Of a stretch of DNA of 64,000 nt, positions 3,334 to 60,012 are shown in pieces; the stretch's first letter is position 1; each line of letters starts with the position of its first letter. A model generated the notes under the pieces. That model had not been told where the DNA came from and did not search any database. It saw only the letters and a list, made by a program, of their open reading frames with translations. The position numbers and the translations under genes are program-made. Source of the stretch: a virus. The stretch lies in the IMG/VR virus record IMGVR_UViG_3300025645_000060, positions 4,947-68,946 of that record; one strand, given 5' to 3'.

Positions 3334-6300
3334 TTAATTGATTCTATTTAAAATGAGCCTTACATCATTGTATGTATAGTCAGCGTCAGTTGTACTGTCT
3401 AACTCTAAAGATATAGCATCGTTCGCCGATAGGTTCAAATGATACGTATAGGCAATGGCTGAATTTACGTCCGCCGCTTTTATTTTTACAGACCTATCTA
3501 GTGTCCCATTTATTAAAATATTAACAGACAATATTTCGTCGGCCGTATAGCTACCAATATTACCAGAAAAAGACACCTCCCAAATCCCAGCATTAGTAAC
3601 CTCGATATCTTCGCCAGTTGTTATATCTGTGTTAGTATTAATATCTGATCCGAATACCGCATTAAATAAAACTTGTGTCGCCGCCGTAGATGATATAGTA
3701 TTCAATCCAGTTTCAGCACCACCGTAACCAGTAGCGATTAAATCTGTTTCTACGATATGACCATCAGCATCGAACGCAGCATTTTTTGTAGCTGCGCCAA
3801 CAATCCGATCTGAGATTGCCAACGACCCAGTAATCTCCACTTCCTCAGTAACAAAATCACCAAAAATTAATGGTTGGTCTTGATACATCCCGATCGCTAA
3901 TTTATAATTTCCTGCGGCATCTGTTCCATCTGTATATCCTTGACGATAACCTAACAATATCGAATTGTGCAAATTGGCTAGTTCTCCATATCCATTTTCA
4001 TAGCCTATCATAATTGATCGTTTTAGTGACCCCGTGCAATTATATCCGTTCCTAAACCCATGAATGAACGCAGATTCCATATTCCCACCGACATAAGCGT
4101 TCTGGTAACCGCTTAAAAAAGTGTAATCTAAATCAGCAGTTGTGGAGTTAGCCGCATTAAAATAACCTACCGCAAAACTATAATCTGAATCTAATGCTTT
4201 TTCTGCGTTATTTCTTCCGACCATAAAGTTATGCGTCATGTCCGCAGTCGTTGTCGATAAATTTCTATCTCCAGCCAAAAATGAATATGTAATAGAACTG
4301 GCATCCGCTGCGTTCCTATAGCCACTCATAAAATTATACCCAACAGATGTGGCATCTTGTGCATTGTAAGCACCGTTATAAAACTCATAGTAGGAGTTAC
4401 CAGTGTTACTATATGCATTGTTTAGCCCAAACGCAGTACTGCCGTAAATACCTGAATTAGTGTTGTAATAGTTACTGTGACCGCTGATTGTAGCATAGTT
4501 GAGAGTAGCCGTCCCAACATAGCCGTTCCTAAACCCATTGATAAAAGAATAATCTGCATCCGTCGCAGATGGAAAGTTTTGGAGACCATTTACAAAAAGA
4601 TAAGACGATGGAGTAGTCATATTCTTAAAGTTATCTAAACCATTAGAAAACGTATAATTCAGACTTGTCGAACTTTTAAAATTACCTTGTCCTGCCGAAA
4701 AATTATAATTGCCGCTAGTTATTGCCGCCAAATTGTCTATCCCGAAATTAGTATTAGCTAACCCGCTATCTTTTGGAAATTCTTGTGTAAAAACGCCATT
4801 CATCGCTAATGAGTTCTCAACTTCTACCCCGCCTGCCCTATTAAATGCCATTAAGTCGAATAATGATGGCGAACCAGTTGTTGCGTTGTTAGATTCTAAG
4901 TATAACTTATTCCCAATGCCGTCCAACCTAAATCTAAAACCATAGGAAAAAGTGGCACTACTATTTTCGACAAAGTTAATTTCTGCCGCTTGAGATACGT
5001 TTCCACTCCTTCCTAAAAATAAACTTGCGCCGTCTGTTCCATTTGTGTTTGTTAATATCGTCTGACCATCTATGTGTAACTTTGCTTGCGGATTAGTATT
5101 CCCGATCCCAACATTCCCATCAGAATAAACTGCGTCTAATGGATCAGTACCATCTACAAACTTTCCATCAGCCGTAGTCAAATCTACTTCAACTAACTGA
5201 CCGTTAGCGTCAAACGCTGCTGACTTTGTAGCTGCACCGCCTATTCGGTCTGATACGTGCAATTCTCCGTTTACCGTCAATTCATCCGTTGCAAAATCGC
5301 CATAAATTAAAGGCGTCGTCGTATTACTATTATCTATGTATAATTTGTTAGAGCCTGTTTCTAACGAACCCGCATTAAAGCCAAGATATACCCCATAATC
5401 ACCAGCAGCAATCGCCCCTGAGTTATACCCAAAACAAGAGTTACCTATACCACTCGTTTTCCCCGCAAAAGAACCAACTACCGTACTAAAGTCACCGACC
5501 GAAACTGATCCCGCTTCATTCCCAATTACCACCGACCTATCTATGTCTGTGTCTCCATCACCCGCATCATATCCAATTATTACACTTTTCTCGCCAGTGG
5601 TATTAGATACCCCCGCCGATGAACCGATAAACACATTAAACCGTCCGCTTGTATTACCTAATCCAGCCAAATAACCAATAAATGTATTATTGATCCCTGT
5701 ATTAGACTGACCAGCTAAGTGACCAATTGCTAATAGACTACCACCTGTGTTGTTTTTACCCGCCCTATATCCTATCGCCGTAGACGTTCCAGCCGTACCG
5801 TTCATCAAAGCCTCAAAACCGACACCTATATTACTTGCTTGTATATTATTTGCTCCTGCATCCTCCCCGATAAATACACTCTTTGATGTATTTGCAAAAT
5901 CTATATATCCGTTCCCTATGATTAGATCAGCGTATGGACTTAATCCGCTTGTACCGATAGCTGCTTTCCCGTTAACTTCTAGATCACCTACTACATCTAA
6001 AGTTGCGCTAGGTGTGTTCGTTCCGATTCCAATATTTCCACTTGGAAACGAAATGTCTCCAATCGCACTTCGTTCAACCCTCATAAATGTATTTGGTACA
6101 TCGCTTAACACTCTATTAAATACTATATCGTTTTCTGTACTACCTTCAAACCCGATAGAAAAACCCCTTGTTTCATTACTAGCACCCGACATCTTAAATG
6201 GATTAGAATCTATAGTTTCTGCCCTTATCTCTAGTCGTTCATCGGGTGTATTCGTTCCGATACCTACATAACCATCCATATAAACGGCGTCTAATGGATC

Positions 6301-7557
6301 AGTACCATCTACGAATTTACCGCCAGACGAACCACCATTATTTTGAACAAATTCTAATAAACCGACTATGTTAGTAGTATCTTGAATTTCATTTGTCGGA
6401 TCGAAATCTGCGTCGTTTACATCATCGGTGAATGAACCGCCACTATTAGATAACGTGACCGTTTGCCCAACTTTCGATATAGTTTGAATCTCATTCGTAA
6501 TACTACCATCAACTTCCGTTTCCAAGTATCCATTGTTGTCAGCGAAAGCGTCTACTTGTGCCTCTGTCAATTGTGTGTCTGTATCAACAGTCTTAGTCAC
6601 CGAACCTCCACCGTTCGATAAAGTAAATGTCGCTCCGTTATCTGTTAATGTCTGTAATTCATTTGATATGCTACCATCGACTTCTGTTTCCAGGTATCCA
6701 TTATTGTCAGCATAAGCGTCTACTTGAGCCTCTGATAATTGTGTGTCTGTGTTATCCAAATAGGGTTCTAAATCTACTGAATTGCCATTTTCAATCATTA
6801 GCCAATCACTGACTATATCTATCATCTGATCATCTGTGCCGCTATCATCTAAACTCGATAGATCAATAAAATGCGTCGTAGTATTATCACTTAATGATAA
6901 TTTTAGGATGTTATCCAATCCAAAAGAATGGACATCGAATCCCTGTAACTCGTTAGTTGAATCTAGATCATTATCTATACTTATGTGATAATTCCCACTA
7001 GTGTCTGTTCCTATTCCATCCGCTATACTATTGTTTTGCACAAAATCTAATAACCCAACTATTTCGTTTGTGTCTTGGATTTCATTATTTGGGTCGAAAT
7101 CTGCATCATTTGGCGATGTAATATATCCAGCCCCATTAGTTAATTGATTGTTGTTCGTGGGTATAATAGGTAGGTTAGTCAAATCATTATAGTCTTTATC
7201 CCATGCCGAATATATAGGGTCGGTTTCAAAGGCATTAACTTCTGCTTGACTCAGTTGGCTATCATCATCGCCATCTGCTATATCTGTAGGTATACCAACT
7301 ATAGTAGCCCATAACGTAGAGCCTCCGATCTCTACCCATTTAACAGATCCTTTGTAGTAAACGGCATCCTCACTGACAATATATGCTATATGACCATCAT
7401 ACACAAATGGTATAGTAGCAGTATCCGCTAATGTATTTATTTTTGCCCTTAAATCAAGCGGAGAAGAAATATTAGCTTCAAAGCTAGTGTTTATTGTAAT
7501 TTGACTACTAGCAGAAATTGCAAGTAAAGTTAATGCTAAACATAATGTATATCTCAT
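3334..7557 (-). CDS. large tail fibre/adhesin-like protein with signal peptide
   Basis: VGIGTNTP repeats, NTFIGYLAG beta-helix repeats, DTQLTEAQVDA repeats and a C1q/TNF-like C-terminus. Confidence 0.75.
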   Translation of the reverse strand: MRYTLCLALTLLAISASSQITINTSFEANISSPLDLRAKINTLADTATIPFVYDGHIAYIVSEDAVYYKGSVKWVEIGGSTLWATIVGIPTDIADGDDDSQLSQAEVNAFETDPIYSAWDKDYNDLTNLPIIPTNNNQLTNGAGYITSPNDADFDPNNEIQDTNEIVGLLDFVQNNSIADGIGTDTSGNYHISIDNDLDSTNELQGFDVHSFGLDNILKLSLSDNTTTHFIDLSSLDDSGTDDQMIDIVSDWLMIENGNSVDLEPYLDNTDTQLSEAQVDAYADNNGYLETEVDGSISNELQTLTDNGATFTLSNGGGSVTKTVDTDTQLTEAQVDAFADNNGYLETEVDGSITNEIQTISKVGQTVTLSNSGGSFTDDVNDADFDPTNEIQDTTNIVGLLEFVQNNGGSSGGKFVDGTDPLDAVYMDGYVGIGTNTPDERLEIRAETIDSNPFKMSGASNETRGFSIGFEGSTENDIVFNRVLSDVPNTFMRVERSAIGDISFPSGNIGIGTNTPSATLDVVGDLEVNGKAAIGTSGLSPYADLIIGNGYIDFANTSKSVFIGEDAGANNIQASNIGVGFEALMNGTAGTSTAIGYRAGKNNTGGSLLAIGHLAGQSNTGINNTFIGYLAGLGNTSGRFNVFIGSSAGVSNTTGEKSVIIGYDAGDGDTDIDRSVVIGNEAGSVSVGDFSTVVGSFAGKTSGIGNSCFGYNSGAIAAGDYGVYLGFNAGSLETGSNKLYIDNSNTTTPLIYGDFATDELTVNGELHVSDRIGGAATKSAAFDANGQLVEVDLTTADGKFVDGTDPLDAVYSDGNVGIGNTNPQAKLHIDGQTILTNTNGTDGASLFLGRSGNVSQAAEINFVENSSATFSYGFRFRLDGIGNKLYLESNNATTGSPSLFDLMAFNRAGGVEVENSLAMNGVFTQEFPKDSGLANTNFGIDNLAAITSGNYNFSAGQGNFKSSTSLNYTFSNGLDNFKNMTTPSSYLFVNGLQNFPSATDADYSFINGFRNGYVGTATLNYATISGHSNYYNTNSGIYGSTAFGLNNAYSNTGNSYYEFYNGAYNAQDATSVGYNFMSGYRNAADASSITYSFLAGDRNLSTTTADMTHNFMVGRNNAEKALDSDYSFAVGYFNAANSTTADLDYTFLSGYQNAYVGGNMESAFIHGFRNGYNCTGSLKRSIMIGYENGYGELANLHNSILLGYRQGYTDGTDAAGNYKLAIGMYQDQPLIFGDFVTEEVEITGSLAISDRIVGAATKNAAFDADGHIVETDLIATGYGGAETGLNTISSTAATQVLFNAVFGSDINTNTDITTGEDIEVTNAGIWEVSFSGNIGSYTADEILSVNILINGTLDRSVKIKAADVNSAIAYTYHLNLSANDAISLELDSTTDADYTYNDVRLILNRIN
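7174..7311. repeat. 138-bp near-identical repeat, copy 1 (copy 2 at 9050-9187)
   Basis: One mismatch by eye between two adjacent fibre genes. Confidence 0.85.
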
Positions 7558-7558
7558 A

Positions 7559-9436
7559 TTATTCCTTAAATTGGTAACTACCGTTGGCAGTTGTTAAATT
7601 ATTAAGTTTGTATAAAGTGTAGTCGTGAGTCCAATTATTAACCAAACCACTACTACTCACACTTATAGTTGTCTTTGTGAAAGACGATCTAATCTCAAAG
7701 CCATTGGGGTCTAAAATACTACTAAGATCGTCATCAGACCAAGCGGTAGGAGTTAAATAGTATATATAAGCATTACTTCCACTTATTGTCACAGTTTTAT
7801 TACCCTCTGTAGCTACAAGTTTTGTCAAGTCTGCATACGGATCGCCACTACTATTATAGTCCGTTGAACTCATCCCATAAATCACTGGGTAAACCCCTCT
7901 CACCGTTCTTGAGCTACTTGTTGTATTGCCACTATCCCCATTTCTCGTCCAATCTTGGTTAGCTTGGAAAGTGTAAGTCGTTACCGCTGTAGGGGCAAAT
8001 GTCTCACTATGTGAAAAGGTAGTATTCGAGCCAAAAGTAGAAACTACTACTCCGCTTCGTTTTACCTCTCCATTTGACAATGTAGAACCGCCTAAGTTAG
8101 TTACCGTTCCACTATAAGAAATTGATTGGCTTGTTCCTATCTCATAGGTTGCGCTTGTTCCAGAAAATGAGATTGTTGTCTGAGGGTTCTCAACATACCA
8201 CCAATCTAACCACCCATCAACAGTACTAGTGCCTAACACTGCTCCAACCTCTGGCACTCTCAATATGGCTCTATCGCCATCAAAAGCCCCACCACTTCCA
8301 TATGTCTCAACGAACTCTTGTAGTCCATCTATATTAGATGTGTCTTGAATTTCATTTGTGGGATCAAAGTCAGCGTCATTTACTGCATCTGTATACGAAC
8401 CGCCTCCATCTGACAATGTAACTGTAGAGCCAACTTTACTGATCGTTTGTAACTCATTCGTAACACTCCCATCCACCTCAGATTCTAAGTAACCATTATT
8501 ATCTGCAAATGCATCTACTTGTGCCTCAGTTAGTTGCGTGTCGGTGTCTACGGTTTTTACTATAGTACCTCCCCCATCAGATAACGTAAATGTTGCACCG
8601 CCATCTGTTAAAGTTTGTAATTCGTTACTAATGCTTCCATCAACTTCTGTTTCCAGGTAACCATTGTTATCTGCGAAAGCATCTACTTGCGCTTCGGTCA
8701 ATTGAGTATTAGTGTCTACTGTTTTTGTAACTGTTCCACCACCATCAGATAATGTAAATGTTGCCCCGACATCTGTCAATGTTTGAATTTCATTGTCAAT
8801 GCTACCATCGACCTCCGTTAATAAATAGCCATTATTACCAGCATAAGCATCTACTTGTGCCTCTGACAATTGGGTATCTGTATCTACTGTTTTTGTAACT
8901 GAGCCACCGCCATCAGATAACGTAAATGTCGCACCAACATCTGTTAATGTTTGTAATTCATTTGTAGGATCAAAATCTGCATCATTCGGTGACGTAATAA
9001 ATCCACTATCATTAACTAATTCACTTGTATTAGATGGTATGATTGGTAAGTTAGTCAAATCATTATAGTCTTTATCCCATGCCGAATATATAGGGTCGGT
9101 TTCAAAGGCATTAACTTCTGCTTGGCTCAGTTGGCTATCATCATCGCCATCTGCTATATCTGTAGGTATACCAACTATAGTAGCCCACTCCGCTACACCT
9201 CCTACTTCAATCCATTTAACTGAATTTTTGAAATATAAAACATCTTCACTTACTACATAAGCTATACTACCATCATACACAAATGGTATAGTCGCAGTAT
9301 CTGCTAATGTGTTTATTTTAGACCTCAAATCTAAAGGCGCCGCAATGTTTGGTTTAAAATTAGTATTTACTGTAATTTGCGATGCAGCAAACTGCGCAAT
9401 AAATAATCCTAAAAAAATCAATATTGTATTCTTCAT
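7559..9436 (-). CDS. repeat-rich fibre/adhesin-like protein with signal peptide
   Basis: N-terminus paralogous to 3334-7557; ~56-aa tandem repeats; C-terminus paralogous to 9438-10622. Confidence 0.75.
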   Translation of the reverse strand: MKNTILIFLGLFIAQFAASQITVNTNFKPNIAAPLDLRSKINTLADTATIPFVYDGSIAYVVSEDVLYFKNSVKWIEVGGVAEWATIVGIPTDIADGDDDSQLSQAEVNAFETDPIYSAWDKDYNDLTNLPIIPSNTSELVNDSGFITSPNDADFDPTNELQTLTDVGATFTLSDGGGSVTKTVDTDTQLSEAQVDAYAGNNGYLLTEVDGSIDNEIQTLTDVGATFTLSDGGGTVTKTVDTNTQLTEAQVDAFADNNGYLETEVDGSISNELQTLTDGGATFTLSDGGGTIVKTVDTDTQLTEAQVDAFADNNGYLESEVDGSVTNELQTISKVGSTVTLSDGGGSYTDAVNDADFDPTNEIQDTSNIDGLQEFVETYGSGGAFDGDRAILRVPEVGAVLGTSTVDGWLDWWYVENPQTTISFSGTSATYEIGTSQSISYSGTVTNLGGSTLSNGEVKRSGVVVSTFGSNTTFSHSETFAPTAVTTYTFQANQDWTRNGDSGNTTSSSRTVRGVYPVIYGMSSTDYNSSGDPYADLTKLVATEGNKTVTISGSNAYIYYLTPTAWSDDDLSSILDPNGFEIRSSFTKTTISVSSSGLVNNWTHDYTLYKLNNLTTANGSYQFKE

Positions 9437-9437
9437 A

Positions 9438-10622
9438 TTATCTGTTATATATGTATGCTGCTCCAGATGCAGTAGTTAAATTATTTAATTTATATAGCTT
9501 ATAATCTTGCGTCCAGTTATTAACTAAGCCTGTACTTGTAACACTTACGTCATAAGCAGTGAATGATGGCGTAACATCAAATCCGTTAGCGTCTATAATG
9601 CTATTTACAGTGTAGTCACTCCAGCTTTTAGGTATTAAGATGTAAATATACTCATTTGTTCCTGTCATTGTTAATCCAGTTTGGTTTCCTTCTGAAATAA
9701 TCCTCTTAGACCAAATACTGTACGGAACTGAACCTCCATTGTAGACTGTAGCACTCATTCCCCATAACACAGGATGAACACTACTAACTGACCTTGAAGC
9801 CGTTGCCGTACCGCTACTAGACCCTCCAGCCGCACATATACTACCAGTGTTATTCCATGCAGCAGAGGCACTGTAGGTCTTATACTGTGCTGTTGTTGGA
9901 GCAAAAGTTATAGCTTTACTGTAAGATATACCACTCCATGGCGTAGCGTCAACCAACTGCGTTGTAATAGTGTAGTCGCACACATTTGTCAATGTTCCAG
10001 ATAGTGTATAATTATTTGACGTTCCCACCTCTACAACAGTAGGTGAAAAATAATTCATAGTCAATGTTGGGTTGGTTGCGTTGCCGATGTAGTGCCAATC
10101 CAACCATTCTCTAAATGTAGTAGCTTCAAAATTATCGCCTATGTCCATTACCCTTGAGATAACTCTATCTCCATTATATAGGCTATCCATACCGCCCCCT
10201 CCTCCTAAACTCCTATAGTAAGAATCTATACACTGACGGTCACTATCAGTAATACCACTAATTAGGTGAGAAACTAAACTTTCAGTTTCTTGAAGTATGG
10301 CACAAACTCCTGTATTCAACGTAGTGTTCCCTCCTTTGTGTAGTTTTAATGTAATCTCATTGGCGAACAATGATACAAGTTCGGTAACTTCATACCTCTG
10401 GCAATTTTTCCATACAACTATATTCATTGTCTCAGACAAGTCTGTCCCAATAAAGTTGTTACTGAAGTCGGTAATTAGAAAAGTTGCTGTTATTGTATCA
10501 TTGGATTCTGAAGGAGAGGTCGTGATCTGACCTTGAAATCCCGCTAATGGGATTACTGTTTGAGCATAACTGCAAACACTAGTTGTGAATACTGCTAGCA
10601 TCAATATCAATATCTTATTCAT
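9438..10622 (-). CDS. signal-peptide protein sharing a C-terminal domain with 7559-9436
   Basis: MNKILILMLAVFTTSVCSYA|Q; shared GLVNNWTxDYxLYKLNNLTTA ending. Confidence 0.7.
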   Translation of the reverse strand: MNKILILMLAVFTTSVCSYAQTVIPLAGFQGQITTSPSESNDTITATFLITDFSNNFIGTDLSETMNIVVWKNCQRYEVTELVSLFANEITLKLHKGGNTTLNTGVCAILQETESLVSHLISGITDSDRQCIDSYYRSLGGGGGMDSLYNGDRVISRVMDIGDNFEATTFREWLDWHYIGNATNPTLTMNYFSPTVVEVGTSNNYTLSGTLTNVCDYTITTQLVDATPWSGISYSKAITFAPTTAQYKTYSASAAWNNTGSICAAGGSSSGTATASRSVSSVHPVLWGMSATVYNGGSVPYSIWSKRIISEGNQTGLTMTGTNEYIYILIPKSWSDYTVNSIIDANGFDVTPSFTAYDVSVTSTGLVNNWTQDYKLYKLNNLTTASGAAYIYNR

Positions 10623-42188: not shown

Positions 42189-43457
42189 TCATTTCCACTT
42201 AAAATAATAAGGGTGCGAATGGTAGCAATCTTCCTTAAAATTGAAATTATAAAAACCGCTTATACCTTTTTTGAAATTAGTTTGAACCCAATTAGATGAA
42301 GGACTAAAAGCAGGGAAATTCCAATATTTGAATTTTTGAGATGTGGAGTTATCAAATATATCTTGATGGCTATCTCCTTTAATAAAGTATATTTCTAAAT
42401 CTTTACTAACTAAATTGTTATCATATAGATAGTTCTCTATTTTTTCAATCTGAATAGCATCTAATTTAGGCTTAAACCCAAACTTTAAATTTTTGCCATC
42501 CTTACCATGAGTAGATACAAATACTTTATTACCGTACACGTAATGATTTATAAATTTACGTTGGTTAGTTATGTTTACATTATTATACTTATACTCTATA
42601 AACTTCTTAAATGATGAATTAACCACATAAGAAAAGCTTCCAGAATGGTTGTCATCACAAATATTTATAACATCAATCTGTGAGTAATGCTTTACTAATT
42701 CGTCAATTAATCGAACCTTAAAAGATAACCCAACATCGAAAGCTTTTTCGTTATCCATGTTTTGAGGTAACTCATGCCCTTTACGTACCGTTTCGCCATC
42801 CCATCCATCCATGAAATCACCTAAATCAAATAAAATTAATTTATTAGACTTCTTATTTTCTATTATTTTACTTGCGTAAATAGATAACCTTTCTTCAACT
42901 TCGTACTCATCCCATTTACCCCCATATAAACCGTACCCATTAGGATTTGGATTCATTGCAATATGGGTATCAGTAAAGACAGAAACATCAAAAAGATAAC
43001 TACTATCAATATCTTTGACAGTTGTTTTAATAGGTTTCGTTCCTTTATATAACTCCTCTATTGATTCGCTTAACAAATTAACTAAATCAGGTTCTTTGTT
43101 ATCTGTTGTGTTTTCTCTAAATAGTATATTGAAAAACGGTGTTCCAGTATGAGATACTAACTTATAACTCTTAACATCCTCTCTAGGTAAGCTGTAAAAC
43201 TCGCAATACTCATCTATATCAAGCATCTTACCTGTCACGAAATTCCAAGCACTTAATACAAATGGTTTCGGATCATCAACTACCTTAGTAGACTTTGCTT
43301 TTTTGACAGATTTCTTCTTTCGATCTGAAATACCAATAAAATCTCTTTGCTCTTGAGTAATATAATACCTAGCAGTATCCCTACCTTCATCGTTACTCTT
43401 TACTTCTAAACCCAAAGACTTCGCTTCCTCTGGCATTAACCTAGTTCTTACTTTCAT
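42189..43457 (-). CDS. calcineurin-like metallophosphoesterase (phage A)
   Basis: DTH, GDFMD, DNH, HG and GDSH motifs. Confidence 0.75.
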   Translation of the reverse strand: MKVRTRLMPEEAKSLGLEVKSNDEGRDTARYYITQEQRDFIGISDRKKKSVKKAKSTKVVDDPKPFVLSAWNFVTGKMLDIDEYCEFYSLPREDVKSYKLVSHTGTPFFNILFRENTTDNKEPDLVNLLSESIEELYKGTKPIKTTVKDIDSSYLFDVSVFTDTHIAMNPNPNGYGLYGGKWDEYEVEERLSIYASKIIENKKSNKLILFDLGDFMDGWDGETVRKGHELPQNMDNEKAFDVGLSFKVRLIDELVKHYSQIDVINICDDNHSGSFSYVVNSSFKKFIEYKYNNVNITNQRKFINHYVYGNKVFVSTHGKDGKNLKFGFKPKLDAIQIEKIENYLYDNNLVSKDLEIYFIKGDSHQDIFDNSTSQKFKYWNFPAFSPSSNWVQTNFKKGISGFYNFNFKEDCYHSHPYYFKWK

Positions 43458-43624
43458 TAACTTCAGTTTTTTTGTATGAAATAACAGACACTAACCCTAA
43501 TTTGAATGGCTTGGTGAGTTATATCTAATTCACTTTGTATACTTTTTTAGACTTATCTAGTACCCCAACTTCTTGCTCGTGGTCAATGATACGAACTAAT
43601 ACGTGAGGAATACCATTTAAGTAC

Positions 43625-44032
43625 TTAATTCTCTTCCTCTTTGCCATATATATCTTCTTTAAATTCTTCATAACGTATAAAATATCTTATATTCTGAAAA
43701 TCTGAGCCAAAACCTCCATTGTACATCATCACCAACTGACTCTCAGTCGGCTCAAATCCATACTCTCTAGTAAATCTAGTATGTAGTATCTTTAAATACC
43801 CCTCTGCAACCACATAAGCCTTCTTGTAGTCAAGCATTTCTTCGTGTTGATAACAGTAGCCGTAAGTGTCGTTAACGTCTTGTAGTGCCGCCCTATGTAT
43901 CTGAAATGCCCCAATAGCATCAAAGTCGCAACTGTACTTGTTCCAATCTCCCATTGCACATGGATCACTATTACTTTCAATTACAGAAATCACAGAAAGT
44001 ATTATTGGTATTAATTTAATCATTTCTCTCAA
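43625..44032 (-). CDS. lysozyme/SLT-like muralytic enzyme
   Basis: VIES...AIGAFQI...YNGG; hydrophobic N-terminus. Confidence 0.65.
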   Translation of the reverse strand: MREMIKLIPIILSVISVIESNSDPCAMGDWNKYSCDFDAIGAFQIHRAALQDVNDTYGYCYQHEEMLDYKKAYVVAEGYLKILHTRFTREYGFEPTESQLVMMYNGGFGSDFQNIRYFIRYEEFKEDIYGKEEEN

Positions 44033-44133
44033 ATCTATTTATTTAGAAAGCGCATATGCAATAAGCATCCATAACGCCAATTGACTTAACACTAAAAATT
44101 CCATCATATTGTTTTATATTTTAGTTAAAAAAA

Positions 44134-44191
44134 AGATAACAGCCGATAAGATTCAACGCTAAAAAGCGCAGAACTTATCTATTCGTTTTTT
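44134..44191 (+). mobile_element. attC-like site 1 (A-tract class)
   Basis: GATAAC...GATAAG(A)TTC-CGCT/AGCG-GAACTTATC...CGTT hairpin. Confidence 0.65.
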
Positions 44192-44279
44192 TGCCTTCAA
44201 CACGTGCTTATAGAATCGGCACAAAGCCTGTTCATATCTTTGCTTTGCTGAACTATTAGCATAAGTACCATAAAAGTTT

Positions 44280-44474
44280 TCATTTCTTAAAATTTTCAAT
44301 TAAGTAATCTCCTACTGATACTTCGTGCGGCTTTCCACTATTTCTTCCGTACCTTTCTTTATATTCTTTAATAATCTGATTCGCTTTTGCTTCGAGATTT
44401 TTATTGCCGATTATTTCCTCTAGTATATCTAATAATTTAATATACTTTTCTTTCAATCTGTTTTTTAGTTTCAT
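44280..44474 (-). CDS. hypothetical protein, possible cassette cargo (MKLKNRL...)
   Basis: Lies between attC-like sites 1 and 2; the longer ORF call runs through site 2 and another gene. Confidence 0.5.
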   Translation of the reverse strand: MKLKNRLKEKYIKLLDILEEIIGNKNLEAKANQIIKEYKERYGRNSGKPHEVSVGDYLIENFKK

Positions 44475-44499
44475 TGTATTTATAGTTGAGTTTGTGAAA

Positions 44500-44556
44500 A
44501 AATAACAGTCGAAGATCATGCCATCGGAAAGGACGGCAGATTTCTTAGCGTTGTGT
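44500..44556 (+). mobile_element. attC-like site 2 (A-tract class)
   Basis: AATAACAGTC-GAAGATC-TGCC...GGCA-GATTTC...CGTTGTGT. Confidence 0.7.
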
Positions 44557-44562
44557 GTAATA

Positions 44563-44772
44563 CTAGCAACTACCATATCTGAAACTACCAAATCCTTCAC
44601 CATCGCATTCCTCATCTACAAAGAATCCAAGTTTATCAAGTTCTTCAATATCTTCCTTACTTACTAATTCAGGGTTTATATCTACATAAAAGTAGTCGTG
44701 TTCACAATGGCTTGGGTTTCTTGGGTTGCCATATTTTAAAAGGATTTGTAATGCTTTAATTAAATCTTCCAT
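44563..44772 (-). CDS. cassette cargo, small acidic protein
   Basis: Fills cassette 44551-44898. Confidence 0.7.
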   Translation of the reverse strand: MEDLIKALQILLKYGNPRNPSHCEHDYFYVDINPELVSKEDIEELDKLGFFVDEECDGEGFGSFRYGSC

Positions 44773-44809
44773 CTTATTTATTTAGTTTGTGGCTTAAATT
44801 CCGTACTAC

Positions 44810-44904
44810 ACACAACAATGTATATAGTTTATAAGCCAATTAATATTTGTTTTCAATTGTAATTTTCTGCTATGGCTTACAAAACCATATACTCAACGTT
44901 AGTA
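44810..44904 (+). mobile_element. attC-like site 3
   Basis: ACACAAC-AAT-GTATATAGTTTATAAGCCA...TGGCTTACAAAACCATATAC-TCAAC-GTTAGTA. Confidence 0.85.
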
Positions 44905-44943
44905 ACAATTATTTTTTTTTGCCACCAAGCAGTACGCACTTAC

Positions 44944-45411
44944 TCAATCGTTATTATAATGCTTTAAATAAGGCTGTTCTTTTTTGGTACATTTCTTTTT
45001 CCATCGTTTGTCTAAAAAGATTATATATCTAAATTGTCTTAGTGTTTCTTTTGTGGCTTTCTCTTTAAAACCACGCCTTTCCAACTCAGCCTTTTTATTT
45101 CGGTTGTTATTCGTTATTAAACTATTATGGTATGTTTTCCCCTCAAAGTTCCAGAAAGTACTTGTATGCTCACCAAAATAACTAAAATTAGCCGCTTGGT
45201 AAACAATACCTAAACCTCCACACCGTTCATCTGCAAAACTTTGAATCCACTTAACAGTCTTGTATTTACCTTTAATGTATTTTATGCTATAACTTATGGC
45301 TTTACTTTCTGTATTTTTAACAGCCTTATCATCAAACCACATTCTATTAAGTTCCTTGTATTGGTTTAGTTTCGTTCCTGTAACTAAAGAGCCTCCGCTT
45401 TGTGGGTTCAT
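44944..45411 (-). pseudogene. Mom-like/GNAT DNA-modification protein, apparently 5'-truncated
   Basis: ELNRMWFDD...ESKAIS...IQSFADERCG..GIVYQAANF; the N-terminal part and a closing attC are missing. Confidence 0.55.
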
Positions 45412-45555
45412 AGCATTATGCCGTTTACCTCAGTCATGTATTCTTTAAAAGTCATATTCTCGTTATTTATACCGCCTCAGACGGTGTTTAGCTTTTTCGT
45501 TATCACATAAGTTAACAAACATAAATTAATGTAAACATATCTGACTACATTTTGA

Positions 45556-45655
45556 AATGGAGTAGCGATTAAAGTTTCACCTCAATAACCACCACTCCAA
45601 ATAACCTGCCTTGGTAGCGACTCCAGAACATCAAATGATGCAACGACAGCAGCGA
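45556..45655 (-). ncRNA. candidate structured RNA, copy 1
   Basis: Homologous to 59911-60012; G.U-containing stem around GAGGTGAAAC. Confidence 0.65.
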
Positions 45656-45660
45656 CTCAG

Positions 45661-46053
45661 CTAAGAGTCGATATCTTTAAATATATTTTCCAAGTCTTTC
45701 TTTAAATACTCGTAGTTCAGTGCAGTATATCTAAGAACCTTCCATCCTAGTATAGCTGCGTTATTGTACTTTTCGCAATCTTTACTGTAGCCTGTAATGG
45801 AAGTGTGTCGGCTCTTATGTCCTACAATTCCCTCATACTCTATAGCCACATTGATACTCAGTATAGCAACATCAAATCTCCATCGCCTAGTCTTGTGGAA
45901 TCTATGTTCTTCTACGTAGGCTATTTCCATCTCGTCAAGTATGTTCAGTATATTAACCAAACCAACAGGTCTATTGTCAACTAGATCTTCCGCTCCTTTT
46001 ACTCTGCGCCCTTTATTCTTTAACTTCTCTACATCCTTTTTAGTCCATTTCAT
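45661..46053 (-). CDS. PD-(D/E)XK nuclease (DUF559-like)
   Basis: EHRFHKTRRWRFDVA...AIEYEG...KYNNAAILGWKVLR. Confidence 0.8.
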   Translation of the reverse strand: MKWTKKDVEKLKNKGRRVKGAEDLVDNRPVGLVNILNILDEMEIAYVEEHRFHKTRRWRFDVAILSINVAIEYEGIVGHKSRHTSITGYSKDCEKYNNAAILGWKVLRYTALNYEYLKKDLENIFKDIDS

Positions 46054-46075
46054 GTAACAAAAATACTAAAAAAAA

Positions 46076-46134
46076 AAATAACAGTCGATGAAGATTCAAC
46101 GATAAGAATCGCAGAACTTATCTCTTCGTTGTGC
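46076..46134 (+). mobile_element. attC-like site 4 (A-tract class; head of the main array)
   Basis: Near copy of site 1; ends CGTTGTGC. Confidence 0.75.
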
Positions 46135-46139
46135 GCAAT

Positions 46140-46367
46140 TTAAGCAACATCTGCACTTTTATAGTCAGAAGGCTCAAATCCTGCGTTCCAAAAAAATAGT
46201 GTACCTCTTTTTAGTTTCTTTTTTGTGTCTTGATGCTCACATTCTACTTTCCTTTTTTCAATCGGTTTTTCGCACCTCTCACCATCTGAATTGATGAAGT
46301 AAACCAAGTCGCCTTCTTTTACTTCTTTACCATTTGATAATTTTGTCTTTTTAAATAATCCGAACAT
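46140..46367 (-). CDS. cassette cargo, paralog of 47324-47554
   Basis: Cassette 46129-46503; FINSDGERCE...GTLFFWN. Confidence 0.75.
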   Translation of the reverse strand: MFGLFKKTKLSNGKEVKEGDLVYFINSDGERCEKPIEKRKVECEHQDTKKKLKRGTLFFWNAGFEPSDYKSADVA

Positions 46368-46378
46368 AATAAAACTGC

Positions 46379-46509
46379 GCACAACATTGTATATAAATCA
46401 GTGGCGTTGTACGTCTTTTTAACCACTTTTAGCTGTTTTATTTAGTTTAAGCGTGTTGGCAATCTATCAGCTATTAATCGCCACCGCTTCATATACTTAG
46501 CCGTTATCT
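46379..46509 (+). mobile_element. attC-like site 5
   Basis: GCACAAC-ATT-GTATATAAATCAGTGGCG...CGCCACCGCTTCATATAC-TTAGCC-GTTATCT. Confidence 0.85.
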
Positions 46510-46516
46510 ACAATAT

Positions 46517-46705
46517 CTATTTTGCCGCCCTCTTATATGTATTCACCCACACAAACCTTCTGCATATATAACAAAATACCTGTGTATTGCCCGTTTTAAT
46601 TTGCTTGTCTGCCCAATCGAACCATTGGTTATAACCATCTGGTTCTTTCATCTGATGTTTTATATGTGGGTGTACACATATTGTGTCTTTCTTTTTAAAG
46701 CACAT
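46517..46705 (-). CDS. cassette cargo, small Cys/His protein
   Basis: Cassette 46504-47028; EPDGYNQWFDWA...CYIC. Confidence 0.65.
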   Translation of the reverse strand: MCFKKKDTICVHPHIKHQMKEPDGYNQWFDWADKQIKTGNTQVFCYICRRFVWVNTYKRAAK

Positions 46706-46925
46706 ATTTATATACTATATATTCATTTATAAACTTGTACATATGGTCTAATCTCCAACCACCTTTAGTTTTCCATAGCCATGTAGTATAATCTTTTAGT
46801 ATTTCAATTTCTTTTTTTTTGTATTTACCTTCTACTATATTGATAATCTCGTCAATATCGCCTTGTAATAAGGTGACATTATGATTGTCTGCCATATAGT
46901 CAAATAGGTCTTGATTTTCCTCCAT
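46695..46925 (-). CDS. cassette cargo, hypothetical protein
   Basis: Second gene of cassette 46504-47028. Confidence 0.65.
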   Translation of the reverse strand: MEENQDLFDYMADNHNVTLLQGDIDEIINIVEGKYKKKEIEILKDYTTWLWKTKGGWRLDHMYKFINEYIVYKYVL

Positions 46926-46978
46926 AATTTGATTTTTTTAATTTTAAAAAAGCTCCGCAGCTAAAAAATAGATACTGT

Positions 46979-47034
46979 AGATAACAGTAGATACGATGTC
47001 ATACGAGTACGACACATATCATCTGCCGTTACCA
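46979..47034 (+). mobile_element. attC-like site 6
   Basis: AGATAAC...GATA-TGTC-TAC/GTA-GACA-TATC...CGTTACCA. Confidence 0.8.
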
Positions 47035-47040
47035 ATAATA

Positions 47041-47223
47041 CTAAATTTTAGTACTATCAATTAACTCGTTGTATTCTTCAATCCACTCAATAGGTATTTT
47101 CATACTTGCATCGTAGTATCTTACAATTGCACCTCTTACTTCTTGTAGCCTTTCAAGTCTATTTACAAACTTAGGTTTCAATCCTATTGGTGGCATTTCT
47201 ACTTTTTCGTGTTCTTTTTTCAT
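47041..47223 (-). CDS. cassette cargo, small phage protein
   Basis: Cassette 47029-47313; PPIGLKP...IPIEWIEEYNEL. Confidence 0.7.
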   Translation of the reverse strand: MKKEHEKVEMPPIGLKPKFVNRLERLQEVRGAIVRYYDASMKIPIEWIEEYNELIDSTKI

Positions 47224-47264
47224 CTTTTCTATTTATTAAGTTATTTCTATTTAATCCGTACTAT

Positions 47265-47319
47265 TGGTAACAACACCTATACGCCATACAAATACAGGCG
47301 CATAGCCAAACCGTTATGC
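47265..47319 (+). mobile_element. attC-like site 7
   Basis: TGGTAAC...CTATACGCC...GGCGCATAG...CGTTATGC. Confidence 0.8.
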
Positions 47320-47323
47320 GCAA

Positions 47324-47554
47324 TTAAACAATAAACGCATTCTTGTAATCTGAAATATTAAATCCAATATTCCAGAAAAACAAAGTTCCTTTTTTCAGCC
47401 TTTCACCAGTATCATTGTGTGTTGTCTTAAATTTCCTACATTGTATTAAACCTTCGCATCTTTCACCATCTGAGTTTATAAAAGCAATCTTATCGCCTTC
47501 TTTTACCTCAGTACCATTAAATAGTTTTGTTTTTCTTTGCTTAAATAAGTTCAT
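47324..47554 (-). CDS. cassette cargo, paralog of 46140-46367
   Basis: Cassette 47314-47660. Confidence 0.75.
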   Translation of the reverse strand: MNLFKQRKTKLFNGTEVKEGDKIAFINSDGERCEGLIQCRKFKTTHNDTGERLKKGTLFFWNIGFNISDYKNAFIV

Positions 47555-47572
47555 AATCAACCAATTAACGGC

Positions 47573-47666
47573 ACACAACATTGTATATAGTTAATGCGCC
47601 AATGAAGTTGAGTGCTTAATTCAATCGTTTGTTGTAGGCGCACTAACCATATACCTACCGTTGTAC
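47573..47666 (+). mobile_element. attC-like site 8
   Basis: ACACAAC-ATT-GTATATAGTTAATGCGCC...GGCGCACTAACCATATAC-CTACC-GTTGTAC. Confidence 0.85.
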
Positions 47667-47670
47667 GCCA

Positions 47671-47934
47671 TTAAAGCCTACTCCCCCAATAATCATCCCA
47701 CAACTCTTGGTAATATTCATAGCTTTCTTGTTGGCAGTATTTGCAACCTATTGCATAATTGCTTTCTTCATCTACATAAGCAGTATTCATTCTGTACCTT
47801 TTGGGGTATAAAAACCATCCATGCAAGGGGCAGTATCCCAACGCCCACCACACAAAACGGCGTACAACAATAAATAAACGCAATTGTTTACGCTCTTTCT
47901 GTTGCTTATGTGTTATATTTTCAAAGTCTTTCAT
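47671..47934 (-). CDS. cassette cargo whose 5' part overlaps attC site 9
   Basis: Cassette 47661-47973; probable ATG in the attC loop. Confidence 0.6.
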   Translation of the reverse strand: MKDFENITHKQQKERKQLRLFIVVRRFVWWALGYCPLHGWFLYPKRYRMNTAYVDEESNYAIGCKYCQQESYEYYQELWDDYWGSRL

Positions 47935-47979
47935 TTTATCAAATTTAGTGTTCAACTGCGTTTATTATCAACGTTACCT
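47862..47979 (+). mobile_element. attC-like site 9 (abuts the terS stop codon)
   Basis: GTACAAC...AATAAACGCAATTG...CAACTGCGTTTATT-ATCAAC-GTTACCT. Confidence 0.85.
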
Positions 47980-48361
47980 ACAGATCGTCACCAGCTTCAT
48001 CTATTACATTATTCTTTGCTGCTGCCGCATCTAGTAACTTTCTATCTTTTGGACTCAACCCAAAAAGACTAGATAGTTTAATGATATTCGCTATTGCTTT
48101 ATTTCGGATCGCCACCTCTGGTCTAGCTTGTCTGTAATCATTACCAGCTATAAATGTCAGGCCATCTTCTAATGCTTCATTACATATGTTAACAGTGTTT
48201 ATCGCTTGCGCTAAAAGTGATAATGATATTTGATCTTTTTGCAGATCAATAGACCCTTCCAGGTTAATTAATATTTGATCATATATTCTTTGATCTTCTT
48301 GCGCTCTTTTTATTAATTCCGCTTCGGTTGGTTTGTTTGATTTCAATTTTTTTAATGCCAT
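47978..48361 (-). CDS. terS: terminase small subunit, P27 family (phage B)
   Basis: EDGLTF...RPEVAIRNKA...LSSLFGLSPKDRKLL. Confidence 0.85.
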   Translation of the reverse strand: MALKKLKSNKPTEAELIKRAQEDQRIYDQILINLEGSIDLQKDQISLSLLAQAINTVNICNEALEDGLTFIAGNDYRQARPEVAIRNKAIANIIKLSSLFGLSPKDRKLLDAAAAKNNVIDEAGDDL

Positions 48362-48372
48362 TTTTTAAATTT

Positions 48373-48609
48373 TTAAAAAGATAATATTACAAAATCTTTA
48401 TGTAAACCATATTTTTCACAATTTTTTAATATATATTTAATTTTTACTTTTATTTTTTTATTTGTGTAAAATTCGTTTTTAATTTCATGTAAAGTAATAT
48501 AATCTCCAATTTTATAATTTTTAGAATTTTTTCTTAATTCAAAATTTTTATTTCCGTTTTTTATTTCTTTAAAATATTTAGATAAAATATCAAGATCGTG
48601 GTTTTTCAT
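48373..48609 (-). CDS. DUF3850/ASCH(PUA)-domain protein
   Basis: HDLDILSKYFKEIKNGNKNFELRKN...YKIGD.ITLHE. Confidence 0.8.
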   Translation of the reverse strand: MKNHDLDILSKYFKEIKNGNKNFELRKNSKNYKIGDYITLHEIKNEFYTNKKIKVKIKYILKNCEKYGLHKDFVILSF

Positions 48610-48610
48610 T

Positions 48611-49780
48611 TTAAAAAATTGATAATTGATTTTGAGCAATTTCTTTATAAGCATCAGCATTAAAAGTAATTAAATTTGTATTTGTTTCATTTTTATCACC
48701 AATAAATTTGTAAGATTTAGATATTCTTGTTGAAGTTTTAAATGTACCTGTAGAAGCAATTTTTTTCGATTGCATCATTTCTGCTTTTTTTTCTCCGTTG
48801 GTTCCCGATGTGAATAACCAATTATTAGATCTTTCAAATGATTTCCACAAAGCTGGATTTGATGTTTTTATATAAATAGTTTTATTGTCGTTTTTATAAA
48901 CTTGACCAAACCAATTTACAAATTTAAAACCAATACCCATTCCCTGAAAATCTGGCAAAACTACCACTCTAGAAATCCTATATCCGTTTTTTATATTACC
49001 ATGAGGAAAAGGAAGAATAGCCATAAAAGCTATTGGTTTATCATTATACAAACTTACAAAATTTTTAGCTGCTTTATTTAAATTTTCAGTTAGATAGTGA
49101 TGTTGCTTGAATATATCCCAAGTTTCATATCTACATCGAAATATCTGTAATTCAATTTTTGGTTTTCCTTGCCGAAGATAGTCCGTCTTCTCTAGACGGC
49201 CTTTTAGTGGAGAATAAGTCCAATCAGGTTGCAACCATTCCATAATGTCAAAATGACAAGAAGCAAGAATTATTTTTTTGTTATTTCGCCGAATATATTT
49301 TTGTAAAGCGTTAGACATAGCTTTAGCGACATCTCTATCTACTACGGATGTAAATTCATCTATCAATATTATATCTCCATTTTTTGCTTTTCCTACTTTA
49401 TATGCTAATGAAGCTCTATATTGTTCTCCGTTTGATAATAAATTAAATGGTCTTAACCATGTTGGAACAGAAGCCAAACCCATAGCAGATAATAAAAAAG
49501 TAGCTTCTTTTGGTTCTAACCAATCAAAATTAGATATTAATGGTTTTTGTTCATCAAATTTATCAATATTCAAATTTCCAAATTCTTTCAATAAAGTTGT
49601 TTTCCCAGTACCAGACCCACCATATATAACTCCTATATTCCAATCAAAAGTTTTACATTCAGAAAAATTTATAGGAATTTTTACAATTGTTTCTTTTTTG
49701 TTTTGAATATCAAAAGCTTCATATATGTATTCAGTATACTTATCATTTATTATTTTATTTCTTTTTTCAATGTATTTCAT
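48611..49780 (-). CDS. ABC-type ATPase fused to a GNAT acetyltransferase
   Basis: GGSGTGKT, LSNGEQYR, IDEFTS, then SRVVVLPDFQGMGIG. Confidence 0.85.
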   Translation of the reverse strand: MKYIEKRNKIINDKYTEYIYEAFDIQNKKETIVKIPINFSECKTFDWNIGVIYGGSGTGKTTLLKEFGNLNIDKFDEQKPLISNFDWLEPKEATFLLSAMGLASVPTWLRPFNLLSNGEQYRASLAYKVGKAKNGDIILIDEFTSVVDRDVAKAMSNALQKYIRRNNKKIILASCHFDIMEWLQPDWTYSPLKGRLEKTDYLRQGKPKIELQIFRCRYETWDIFKQHHYLTENLNKAAKNFVSLYNDKPIAFMAILPFPHGNIKNGYRISRVVVLPDFQGMGIGFKFVNWFGQVYKNDNKTIYIKTSNPALWKSFERSNNWLFTSGTNGEKKAEMMQSKKIASTGTFKTSTRISKSYKFIGDKNETNTNLITFNADAYKEIAQNQLSIF

Positions 49781-59649: not shown

Positions 59650-59910
59650 ATGCGGACAAAAAAAGAAATCCAAGAACTAGGAATGAATATAGTAGAATCT
59701 GCCAAGAATGTAAGTTGGAAAAATGCAGAGCAACTCCATCGAATAACTAAGAATATCTACTACCTCGAACGCTCTATTCAGTTACTAGACCAGTATCCAT
59801 CAAAAATAGATCTACTATTCTTAAAAGCTCAACTAGCAACATCAAAAGATAAAGCAGACAAAACAACTGTTGATTGTATTAATTACATTCTAAAGATATC
59901 GGCTCATTGA
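59650..59910 (+). CDS. hypothetical protein
   Basis: ORF. Confidence 0.55.
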   Translation: MRTKKEIQELGMNIVESAKNVSWKNAEQLHRITKNIYYLERSIQLLDQYPSKIDLLFLKAQLATSKDKADKTTVDCINYILKISAH

Positions 59911-60012
59911 GCTGGTGCTGTCGTTGCAGCATTTTGATGTTCTGGAACGCTACCAATTAGGCAGCTTTATGTGGGGAGATGATCACGAGGTGAAACGTGG
60001 TTGTTTCCCTAT
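59911..60012 (+). ncRNA. candidate structured RNA, copy 2
   Basis: Homologous to 45556-45655; 16-bp G.U-rich stem around AGGTGAAA. Confidence 0.65.

Follow-up and report, generated by a model that had tools for sequence, protein, structure and literature searches.

What is a row of folded hairpins, each opened by AAC and closed by GTT, doing between the small genes of a phage, and could genes be gained and lost there as integron cassettes are when no integrase is in view? The DNA analysed here, referred to as the window, is a stretch of 64,000 nucleotides from the IMG/VR virus record IMGVR_UViG_3300025645_000060 (bases 4947-68946 of a viral contig of 68,946 bp). A preliminary description made from the sequence alone had taken positions 44134-47979 for an integron-like cassette array. 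Our results lead to a more specific answer: it is highly probable that this region is an integrase-less array of Bacteroidota-type integron recombination sites, i.e. a cluster of attC sites lacking an integrase (CALIN), whose cassettes are exchanged at G|TT. All genes of 44.1-48.0 kb lie on the minus strand, a detail absent from the preliminary description, and the sites are oriented as the mirror image of those in bacterial arrays.

All nine imperfect AAC...GTT hairpins are present where they had originally been placed. They are given below with their scores for R1, a covariance model trained on 22 sites flanking IntI-like genes in four Bacteroidota chromosomal regions and run over the whole 64-kb window with filters off.

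Site 1, 44138..44187, minus strand: type A hairpin with 14 stem pairs, then a T-run; last site in the coding direction.
Site 2, 44504..44552, minus strand: type A hairpin with 13 stem pairs; no R1 match.
Site 3, 44814..44900, minus strand: type B, attC-like, with L boxes GTATAT/ATATAC; R1 50.8 bits, E 3.9e-10.
Site 4, 46080..46130, minus strand: type A hairpin; R1 7.5 bits, E 4.7, not significant.
Site 5, 46383..46505, minus strand: attC-like, 123 nt, of the type B group; R1 63.8 bits, E 3.9e-13.
Site 6, 46983..47030, minus strand: short attC-like site; R1 18.8 bits, E 0.011.
Site 7, 47269..47315, minus strand: short attC-like site; R1 41.3 bits, E 6.4e-8.
Site 8, 47577..47662, minus strand: type B, attC-like; R1 50.6 bits, E 4.5e-10 (10.9 bits on the plus strand).
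Site 9, 47866..47975, minus strand: directly after the stop of the terminase-small-subunit-like gene; R1 30.7 bits, E 1.8e-5.

On the minus strand the sites have the common form T-N7-AAC-G, spacer, imperfect stem, loop, stem, spacer, T-GTT-N7-G. The outer boxes open with AAC and close with GTT in nine of nine, and AACG...TGTT is read on the minus strand of all. Three subtypes were distinguished: type A (sites 1, 2 and 4), followed by T-runs; type B (sites 3, 5 and 8), with the GTATAT/ATATAC boxes; and the others (sites 6, 7 and 9). The consensus of R1 consists of an AAC/GTT box, a spacer of 7 versus 3 nt and a 16-bp stem with a bulge; 14 of its 20 base pairs show compensatory changes and one G.U pair is the same in all 22 sites. 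R1 matches six of the nine window sites (5, 3, 8, 7, 9 and 6), all on the minus strand, at 63.8-18.8 bits (E 4e-13 to 0.011), and the next-best match within the window has an E of 0.43. The check by a custom covariance model that had been suggested thus returned these sites and nothing else in the window below E 0.4.

A structural scan that required AACG..TGTT together with an inner stem returned 13 minus-strand and 2 plus-strand rows, as against 0-5 in ten shuffles. Nine of the 13 minus-strand rows correspond to eight of the nine array sites, site 7 being counted twice and site 4 being missed at 12 pairs. The minus strand folds more stably at seven of the nine sites; the two exceptions are of type A, and at site 2 the plus-strand fold is about equal to the minus-strand fold. 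Two further scans were dropped: folding of each AAC..GTT span of up to 175 nt was swamped by long coding stretches, and a two-arm cofold scan proved noisy (82 minus-strand and 41 plus-strand matches versus 33 and 47 in two shuffles). An Rfam search of 43000-49000 with E up to 5 returned nothing relevant.

To place the sites in a family, a short pattern from the type B sites was searched in viral and bacterial genome collections. It matched at least 120 viral and at least 120 bacterial stretches, totals that are no prevalence figure and may by a rough estimate include tens of chance matches; the viral and bacterial locus statistics given here cover loci among the matches listed. The bacterial matches listed are overwhelmingly from Bacteroidota (Saprospiraceae, Flavobacteriaceae, Cyclobacteriaceae and others), and those in Clostridia, Alicyclobacillus, Enterovibrio and others are probably due to chance. 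In 1.14 Mb of viral loci the structural scan found 418 sites versus 83 in shuffles. Viral loci have up to 21 sites (L049) and bacterial loci up to 11 in 8 kb. In both sets the site lengths are bimodal (40-59 and 120-129 nt) and the AACG..TGTT strand is the more stable, by a mean of 6.0 kcal/mol in viruses (91% of 340 sites) and 6.7 kcal/mol in bacteria (94% of 248 sites).

Cultured phages carry the family as well. R1 matches nine sites in Polaribacter phage P12002L, four in Cellulophaga phage phi46:3, two in phi19:1, one in phi10:1 and two in Nonlabens phage P12024S, and the structural scan finds the same site family at no fewer than seven places in P12002L. An array was sought in phi46:3 beside the homologue of a 422-aa gene; that region is not syntenic, the R1 sites lying elsewhere in the genome. 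The top-scoring site of P12002L (L006; 14495-14632, plus strand, 61.5 bits) stands alone among structural genes, next to a lone opposite-strand open reading frame (ORF), gp24, which is bracketed by complementary arms. From its sequence, the gp24 unit looks like a single cassette inserted apart from the main P12002L arrays.

The sites of the window delimit eight intervals. A unit size of 285-525 bp, as first described, applies to seven of them; the remaining one, 44899-46128, measures 1230 bp and has mismatched arms.

Cassette 1, 44186..44550, minus strand: 64-aa ORF (44280-44474) and site 2; arms only partly complementary (A/T runs).
Cassette 2, 44551..44898, minus strand: 69-aa ORF (44563-44772) and site 3; arms GTTGTGTGTAATAC / GTACTACACACAAC (pair I15).
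Interval 3, 44899..46128, minus strand: Mom-like gene (44944-45411), 250 nt free of ORFs, 130-aa endonuclease-like ORF (45661-46053) and site 4; arms mismatched.
Cassette 4, 46129..46503, minus strand: ORF of 76-80 aa (46140-46382) and site 5; arms of pair I17.
Cassette 5, 46504..47028, minus strand: ORFs of 62 and 76 aa and site 6; 21-nt arms (pair I1).
Cassette 6, 47029..47313, minus strand: 60-aa ORF (47041-47223) and site 7; 285 nt; arms of pair I20.
Cassette 7, 47314..47660, minus strand: 85-aa ORF (47324-47581) and site 8; arms not complementary.
Cassette 8, 47661..47973, minus strand: 87-aa ORF (47671-47934) and site 9; 313 nt; complementary arm pair.
Terminase_4-family gene, 47978..48361, minus strand: Pfam 4.1e-9; boundary of the array, upstream in the coding direction.

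The most telling property of these units had already been pointed out, namely that the arm after each GTT is the reverse complement of the arm of the next hairpin, and the five pairs quoted for it are real. Pair I1 extends over 21 nt at 95% identity, pairs I15, I17 and I20 over 14 nt at 93%, and the fifth pair brackets 47661..47973. In the 68.9-kb contig, 12 words of the form GTT+N7 have an exact reverse complement at most 2.5 kb away, versus 3-9 in twenty shuffles. Of these, only the five array pairs extend past 10 nt, each after one mismatch, and this mismatch is at the identical position in all five (A versus G at base 11); the other seven words are AT-rich and stop at ten bases. The same holds for the family at large. 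Between consecutive sites the arms match at six or more of seven positions in 68 of 173 viral pairs (3.2 after re-pairing) and in 74 of 116 bacterial pairs (2.0 after re-pairing). The base following N7 is non-complementary in 66 of the 68 and 72 of the 74, most commonly as T opposite G: the T flanks N7 on the side upstream of AAC and faces G, T or C, with A in only two of the 68 and two of the 74. Hence, the single arm mismatch is a fixed feature of the family and limits the outer box to 10 bp. Downstream of site 1, after the ORFs, there is a possible terminal arm'-AAC half-site (TAGATATAAC) that does not match the arm of site 1, and no attI is claimed.

We infer from these properties an integron-like chemistry with the folded strand as the substrate. 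Each site would fold on the minus (coding) strand: in the free cassette N7+AAC would pair with GTT+N7 to give an outer box of 10 bp, followed by an unpaired spacer and then by an imperfect inner stem that includes G.T pairs. The folded hairpin would be cut near its 5' end at AA|C (G|TT when read on the plus strand of the window) by a tyrosine recombinase of Xer/IntI-like type, and recombination between two sites would release or insert one unit of the form C-G-hairpin-GTT-arm-gene-arm'-AA. With units of this form, each gene would travel with the hairpin in front of it.

Evidence that the units move came from public metagenome contigs aligned to 43000-49000, of which those of runs X3 and X4 give no cover at 43000-44004. 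A joint 47025->47311, found in runs X1, X3 and X4 from two studies, skips 285 nt (47026-47310), and one 385-nt contig has 103 letters on one side of it and 282 on the other. A second joint, 47658->47972, in the same three runs, skips 313 nt (47659-47971). The letters fitting both sides are CCGTTA for the first and CGTT for the second. Both deletions extend between the GTTs of two successive sites and remove exactly one unit; in the 285-nt unit the hairpin upstream of the 60-aa ORF is included. The hairpins of sites 6 and 7 are dissimilar, therefore homologous recombination does not account for the 285-nt joint. Two further joints, 47100->47180 and 44970->45177, were set aside; they lie within genes and look like divergent relatives.

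The contig pieces also break at GTTs (44901, 46501, 47031, 47311 and 47972), and the GTT of site 3 has at least three different continuations in metagenome contigs. A 2455-nt contig of run X2 holds 46496-47031 between flanks dissimilar to the window. Within the viral contig itself (L001), bases 1-119 are an exact copy of 46912-47030, comprising the 5' end of the 76-aa ORF and site 6; the second copy of site 6 occupies contig bases 72-119, and identity ends at ccGTTA, beyond which a different gene (116-aa ORF) follows. Either the cassette is present a second time at another place in the genome or the population is variable here, and the repeat probably explains why the assembly stopped there. 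The single-unit deletions, the multiple continuations at site 3 and the repeat ending in ccGTTA bear out the footprint of cassettes inserted by G|TT crossover that had been read from the arms.

The comparison of relatives for cassette content, also suggested at the outset, showed arrays that differ in content or are absent. The viral contig L002 has the Terminase_4 gene in common with the window (82% protein and 74% DNA identity) and, at the same place, an array of at least seven sites with cargo that differs from that of the window; in relatives L003-L005 the Terminase_4 gene is present with no array behind it. The only unit common to the window and L002 is that of the 69-aa ORF (44549-44790 versus L002 8861-9102), 99.2% identical over 242 nt and ending at AAC-G, as against 74% for the neighbouring terminase gene. 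Cassette 6, with the 60-aa ORF, is 84% identical to L096 177-423, the homology spanning GTT to AAC. Site 5 is 90% identical to a site in L069, and site 8 is 94% identical to one in L111, each with a different left arm.

Among other features of L002, five successive reading frames at 5742-10163 have DNA methyltransferase motifs (as judged by motif reading), each bounded by sites; the row looks like a stockpile against restriction systems. Site 1 resembles the last site of the L002 array in sequence and has no R1 match. The type A sites (44138-44187, 44504-44552, 46080-46130 and L002 10759-10810) share the motifs AAGTTCTG and GAATCTT, GTTAT plus a T-run comes after every one of them, and the final site is of type A in both arrays. 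Such sites may double as terminators or mark the fixed end of an array.

Which parts stay together was then examined over 333 viral sites. Among non-syntenic pairs, 39 have a conserved hairpin that retains the arm downstream of it, compared with 2 for the upstream arm. The following hairpin stays with an upstream gene in none of 11 cases; a downstream gene keeps the preceding hairpin in nine of 22. A tally of homology ends, limited to matches with at least 120 nt outside the sites, placed 32 of 634 left ends and 18 of 653 right ends at AAC; two right ends fell at GTT, and 22 left ends lay 10-11 nt ahead of GTT. An earlier tally was uninformative on cassettes, being swamped by hairpin-to-hairpin matches.

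Which enzyme would act on these sites? The statement that no integrase is in view stands, as no match to PF00589, the tyrosine recombinase family, was found on the 68.9-kb contig with E up to 10, the contig being 72% complete by CheckV. Hence, the array is at most a CALIN. The Bacteroidota regions offer a candidate. In five of the six that were fetched, an IntI-like gene directly adjoins an array of the same sites, and these recombinase genes share the orientation of the cassette genes. The integron-integrase model TIGR02249 has its best match, in each of the five bacterial genomes tested, in a protein with a frame open over 301-394 aa, matching in two stretches of about 116-129 plus 86-93 bits. 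On NF040815 ('tyrosine recombinase/integron integrase') the bacterial array recombinases reach 232 and 214 bits (cut-off 220), and on XerC/XerD they reach about 190 bits. The recombinases at L262:9814-10950 and L260:7598-8455 leave out TIGR02249 positions of about 181-238, which we take to be the IntI-specific segment. Finders that require this segment would probably file these Bacteroidota arrays as CALINs.

A recombinase supplied in trans or encoded elsewhere, as originally supposed, is plausible because the sites belong to a family flanking integron-integrase-like genes in Bacteroidota. A PF00589 match occurs in three of 50 viral records with sites, and in one of 15 among records at least 90% complete. 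It is therefore most likely that the acting enzyme is the array-associated recombinase of the host; a phage copy on the missing 28% of the genome is less likely.

The strongest competing explanation starts from that missing part: the phage's own small Xer-like tyrosine recombinase, encoded there, would run the array, and no host enzyme would be needed. The incompleteness of the contig leaves room for such a gene, and L052 provides an example, in which a gene for a 271-aa tyrosine recombinase starts about 60 nt past an array's last arm'-AAC and on the same strand; the protein scores best against NF040815 and shares 26% identity with a recombinase that adjoins a bacterial array. This explanation is nevertheless unlikely in view of the scarcity of PF00589 matches just mentioned, in near-complete records as well, and L052 is the only one of the three records in which the recombinase gene was seen to adjoin the array.

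The orientation of the sites distinguishes the phage arrays from their bacterial counterparts. When the strand of the genes was compared with that of AACG..TGTT, viral intervals were 90 same and 3 opposite whereas bacterial intervals were 6 same and 65 opposite; by majority, viral loci were 45 same and 2 opposite, and bacterial loci 1 same and 34 opposite. The bacterial layout is thus the classical one, with the gene first and its own site after. In phages the hairpin is ahead of its own gene on the coding strand, and at site 9 and in L052 the gene even starts within the hairpin loop (at site 9 the loop contains the ATG of the next ORF). All ORFs of the window are on the AACG..TGTT strand, so that the classical order of gene then attC is not the one found. 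Only two of 288 viral cassette ORFs, a small sample, match the 120 bacterial loci, which fits separate viral and bacterial cassette pools.

This orientation bears on a further explanation, in which the hairpins act chiefly in the transcript (as terminators, processing sites or stabilisers) and the differences between phages arise by homologous or microhomology recombination, a mechanism proposed for T4-type phages and their promoter-stem-loop cassettes. Because the coding strand is the one with the stable fold, the fold is present in mRNA, and T-runs follow the type A sites. Hairpins conserved at 90-94% among phages with differing neighbour genes could be patches of homology, and in run X3 alone two similar type A sites are joined by a deletion of 1575 nt whose joint falls within 16 letters common to both. 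By contrast, the 285-nt deletion joins dissimilar hairpins over a six-letter overlap with the conserved GTT. Arm complementarity and the fixed non-complementary base are common to bacterial arrays beside integrase-like genes, where the cassette genes are on the other strand and the fold is outside their mRNA sense, and the linkage is strongly one-sided (39 versus 2). We therefore regard transcript elements as an improbable explanation of the array. That it is an inert relic, a piece of a host integron acquired by accident in which exchange has ceased, is very improbable: it would agree with the lack of an integrase on the contig and with the illegitimate or off-target recombination discussed, in the part of the paper available, by Qi et al. 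2023 (PMC9892861) as bringing attC clusters into phages, but not with the reversed gene orientation in 90 of 93 decided viral intervals, the two matches among 288 viral cassette ORFs, the cassette-loss variants and alternative junctions in present-day samples, or a 242-nt unit 99% identical between phages whose backbone gene is 74% identical.

Several observations weigh against exchange of cassettes at G|TT by an integron-type recombinase, which is still the explanation we prefer. Three of the eight intervals are without clean complementary arms: 44899-46128 has no match, and 47314-47660 and 44186-44550 have poor or partial ones. The type A sites 1, 2 and 4 are unrecognised by R1, in two of them the minus-strand fold has no advantage, and they could be terminators because all three are followed by T-runs. 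The metagenome data are assembled contigs, not raw reads; no excised circles were seen in them over 43000-49000, and the 313-nt joint has only 25-26 letters on its shorter side, the intervening stretch being marked as not known. As to the enzyme, 47 of 50 related viral records are without a recombinase, none is tied to this phage, and the bacterial array recombinases, at 199 and 216 bits, do not reach the TIGR02249 cut-off of 265. Finally, a conserved gene and arm come with a different hairpin in 13 of 22 non-syntenic pairs, and a conserved hairpin and arm with an unlike downstream stretch in 30 pairs, the latter a soft figure because the ungapped comparison probably undercounts conserved downstream genes (indels in 5' leaders). 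These two results indicate that breaks also occur beside the arm or at the opposite end of the hairpin, more than would follow from a single crossover point; exchanges at the hairpin's other end, or hairpin replacement, thus also happen.

Taken further, the data raise a wider proposition, for and against which we see the chances as evenly balanced: that Bacteroidota phages keep their own mirror-image integron system, with a separate cassette pool (many DNA methyltransferases and other likely counter-defence genes) in which an attC-type hairpin heads each cassette and exchange is carried out by the array-associated Xer-like recombinase of the host or, in a small number of phages, by a copy that they encode themselves. 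Integrons are the textbook bacterial device for stockpiling and swapping genes; to our knowledge, the contact of phages with them has been thought to be accidental only. If the mirror-image reading is true, the recombining strand would be the non-template strand, a position that may promote folding and rapid turnover, and the cassette pools of phages would be kept apart from those of bacteria. It would explain how small accessory and counter-defence genes move at single-gene resolution between unrelated phage backbones, as does the 99%-identical 242-nt unit, and would provide a simple sequence rule for cataloguing phage accessory genes in metagenomes. Standard integron finders would then largely miss both the phage arrays and the host systems, and surveys requiring a canonical IntI and the classical orientation would undercount them. 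The cultured phages that bear such sites (P12002L, phi46:3, phi19:1, phi10:1 and P12024S) make the system testable.

The genome that hosts the array is that of a phage of Flavobacteriia type, and the array lies in an accessory region. Tailed-phage genes in the window include a large terminase, the Terminase_4-family protein, a primase-polymerase/VapE, a YqaJ exonuclease, a helicase and an M15 peptidase, and the closest cultured relatives, by weak DNA matches, are Cellulophaga and Nonlabens phages. Within the array the only cargo with a family is the Mom-like protein (Pfam Mom, 2.5e-46) and the endonuclease-like ORF, both of interval 3, for which phrog_1384 and phrog_503 were found. Pfam and PHROGs gave no family for seven of the ten small ORFs tested, and the 64-aa ORF of cassette 1 has no PHROGs family. 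The ORFs of cassettes 4 and 7 are paralogues. In the viral loci as a whole, the 288 cassette ORFs fall into 246 clusters with a median of 80 aa, and the largest clusters resemble DNA methyltransferases, judging by sequence motifs only.

Beyond the array, 48611-49780 (minus strand) encodes a 389-aa fusion of an ATPase domain and a GNAT acetyltransferase domain, and Nonlabens phage P12024S has an annotated gene similar to it. An inverted repeat of about 120 nt with 77% identity links 45574-45688 with 59881-59996. The first copy is inside the array, within the 250 nt free of ORFs that separate the Mom-like gene from the endonuclease-like ORF; the second is flanked by a 396-aa ORF and the gene of the M15 peptidase. 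Loose ends of several metagenome contigs lie at 45411, 45622 and 45651, and Rfam, searched with the first copy only, gave no match. The repeat may represent a small structured RNA, or a mobile endonuclease may have left it as its footprint.

How does the array compare with known systems? The preliminary description knew of no characterised phage system of this kind, and here it has to be corrected. In its accessible part, the paper by Qi, Rajabal, Ghaly, Tetu and Gillings 2023 (PMC9892861) reports 17 CALINs from a screen of 10,705 phage genomes, so that integrase-less attC clusters in phages are already published, P12002L included. P12002L is there a virulent phage with a Flavobacteriia host, whose CALIN, with two methyltransferase genes, has two predicted sites in 'divergent directions'; the attC sites lie between DNA methyltransferase genes and are of the same family as those of the window. 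With IntI1 as the enzyme in E. coli, one P12002L attC underwent recombination with attI1; the junction was at G|TT and only the bottom strand took part. The P12002L sites described in that part of the paper are presumably identical with those matched by R1. Phage CALINs are interpreted there as a route for bacterial cassettes, and the available text makes no mention of the mirror orientation, extended arms, arrays of 9 to 21 sites or frequency in uncultured phages. In a search that did not extend to subscription journals, no published account was found of the reversed layout, of extended arms with a fixed mispair or of the abundance of such arrays. Bacteroidota are listed among the phyla with integrons in the section of PMC8618304 that was available.

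With integron arrays and CALINs the window shares folded AAC/GTT hairpins with an unpaired spacer, a variable loop and one better-folding strand, as well as chain-complementary arms, unit loss exactly at G|TT and diverse small cargo. It differs from integrons in that its genes are on the folding strand, the hairpin precedes the gene, and no integrase or attI was recognised in the contig. The published consensus of the attC outer box is the 7-bp RYYYAAC/GTTRRRY, whereas the outer box of the window has 10 bp closed by the fixed mispair. The associated bacterial recombinases differ from IntI in scoring below the curated value and in having no match to model positions 181-238. The 'reverse integrons' of Treponema type carry an inverted integrase gene. 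They resemble the Bacteroidota regions fetched in that the recombinase gene is oriented as the cassette genes; in the Treponema type it is the integrase gene alone that is inverted, whereas the phage arrays have cassette genes that are themselves turned round with respect to the sites.

The promoter-stem-loop cassettes of T4-type phages are like the window in having small accessory genes between repeated stem-loops and, in the portion of the report available, related phages differ by insertion, deletion and replacement of the genes so bracketed (Arbiol et al. 2010, PMC2839356). The window differs in recombining dissimilar hairpins at a fixed GTT, in its complementary arms and in sharing its sites with bacterial arrays next to a recombinase gene. 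The 285-nt deletion between dissimilar hairpins argues against exchange by homology alone, and it is to homology between the repeats that the exchanges in T4-type phages have reportedly been ascribed. The region is a new member of the published phage-CALIN class, in a reversed, apparently phage-adapted variant that is widespread in uncultured Bacteroidota phages.

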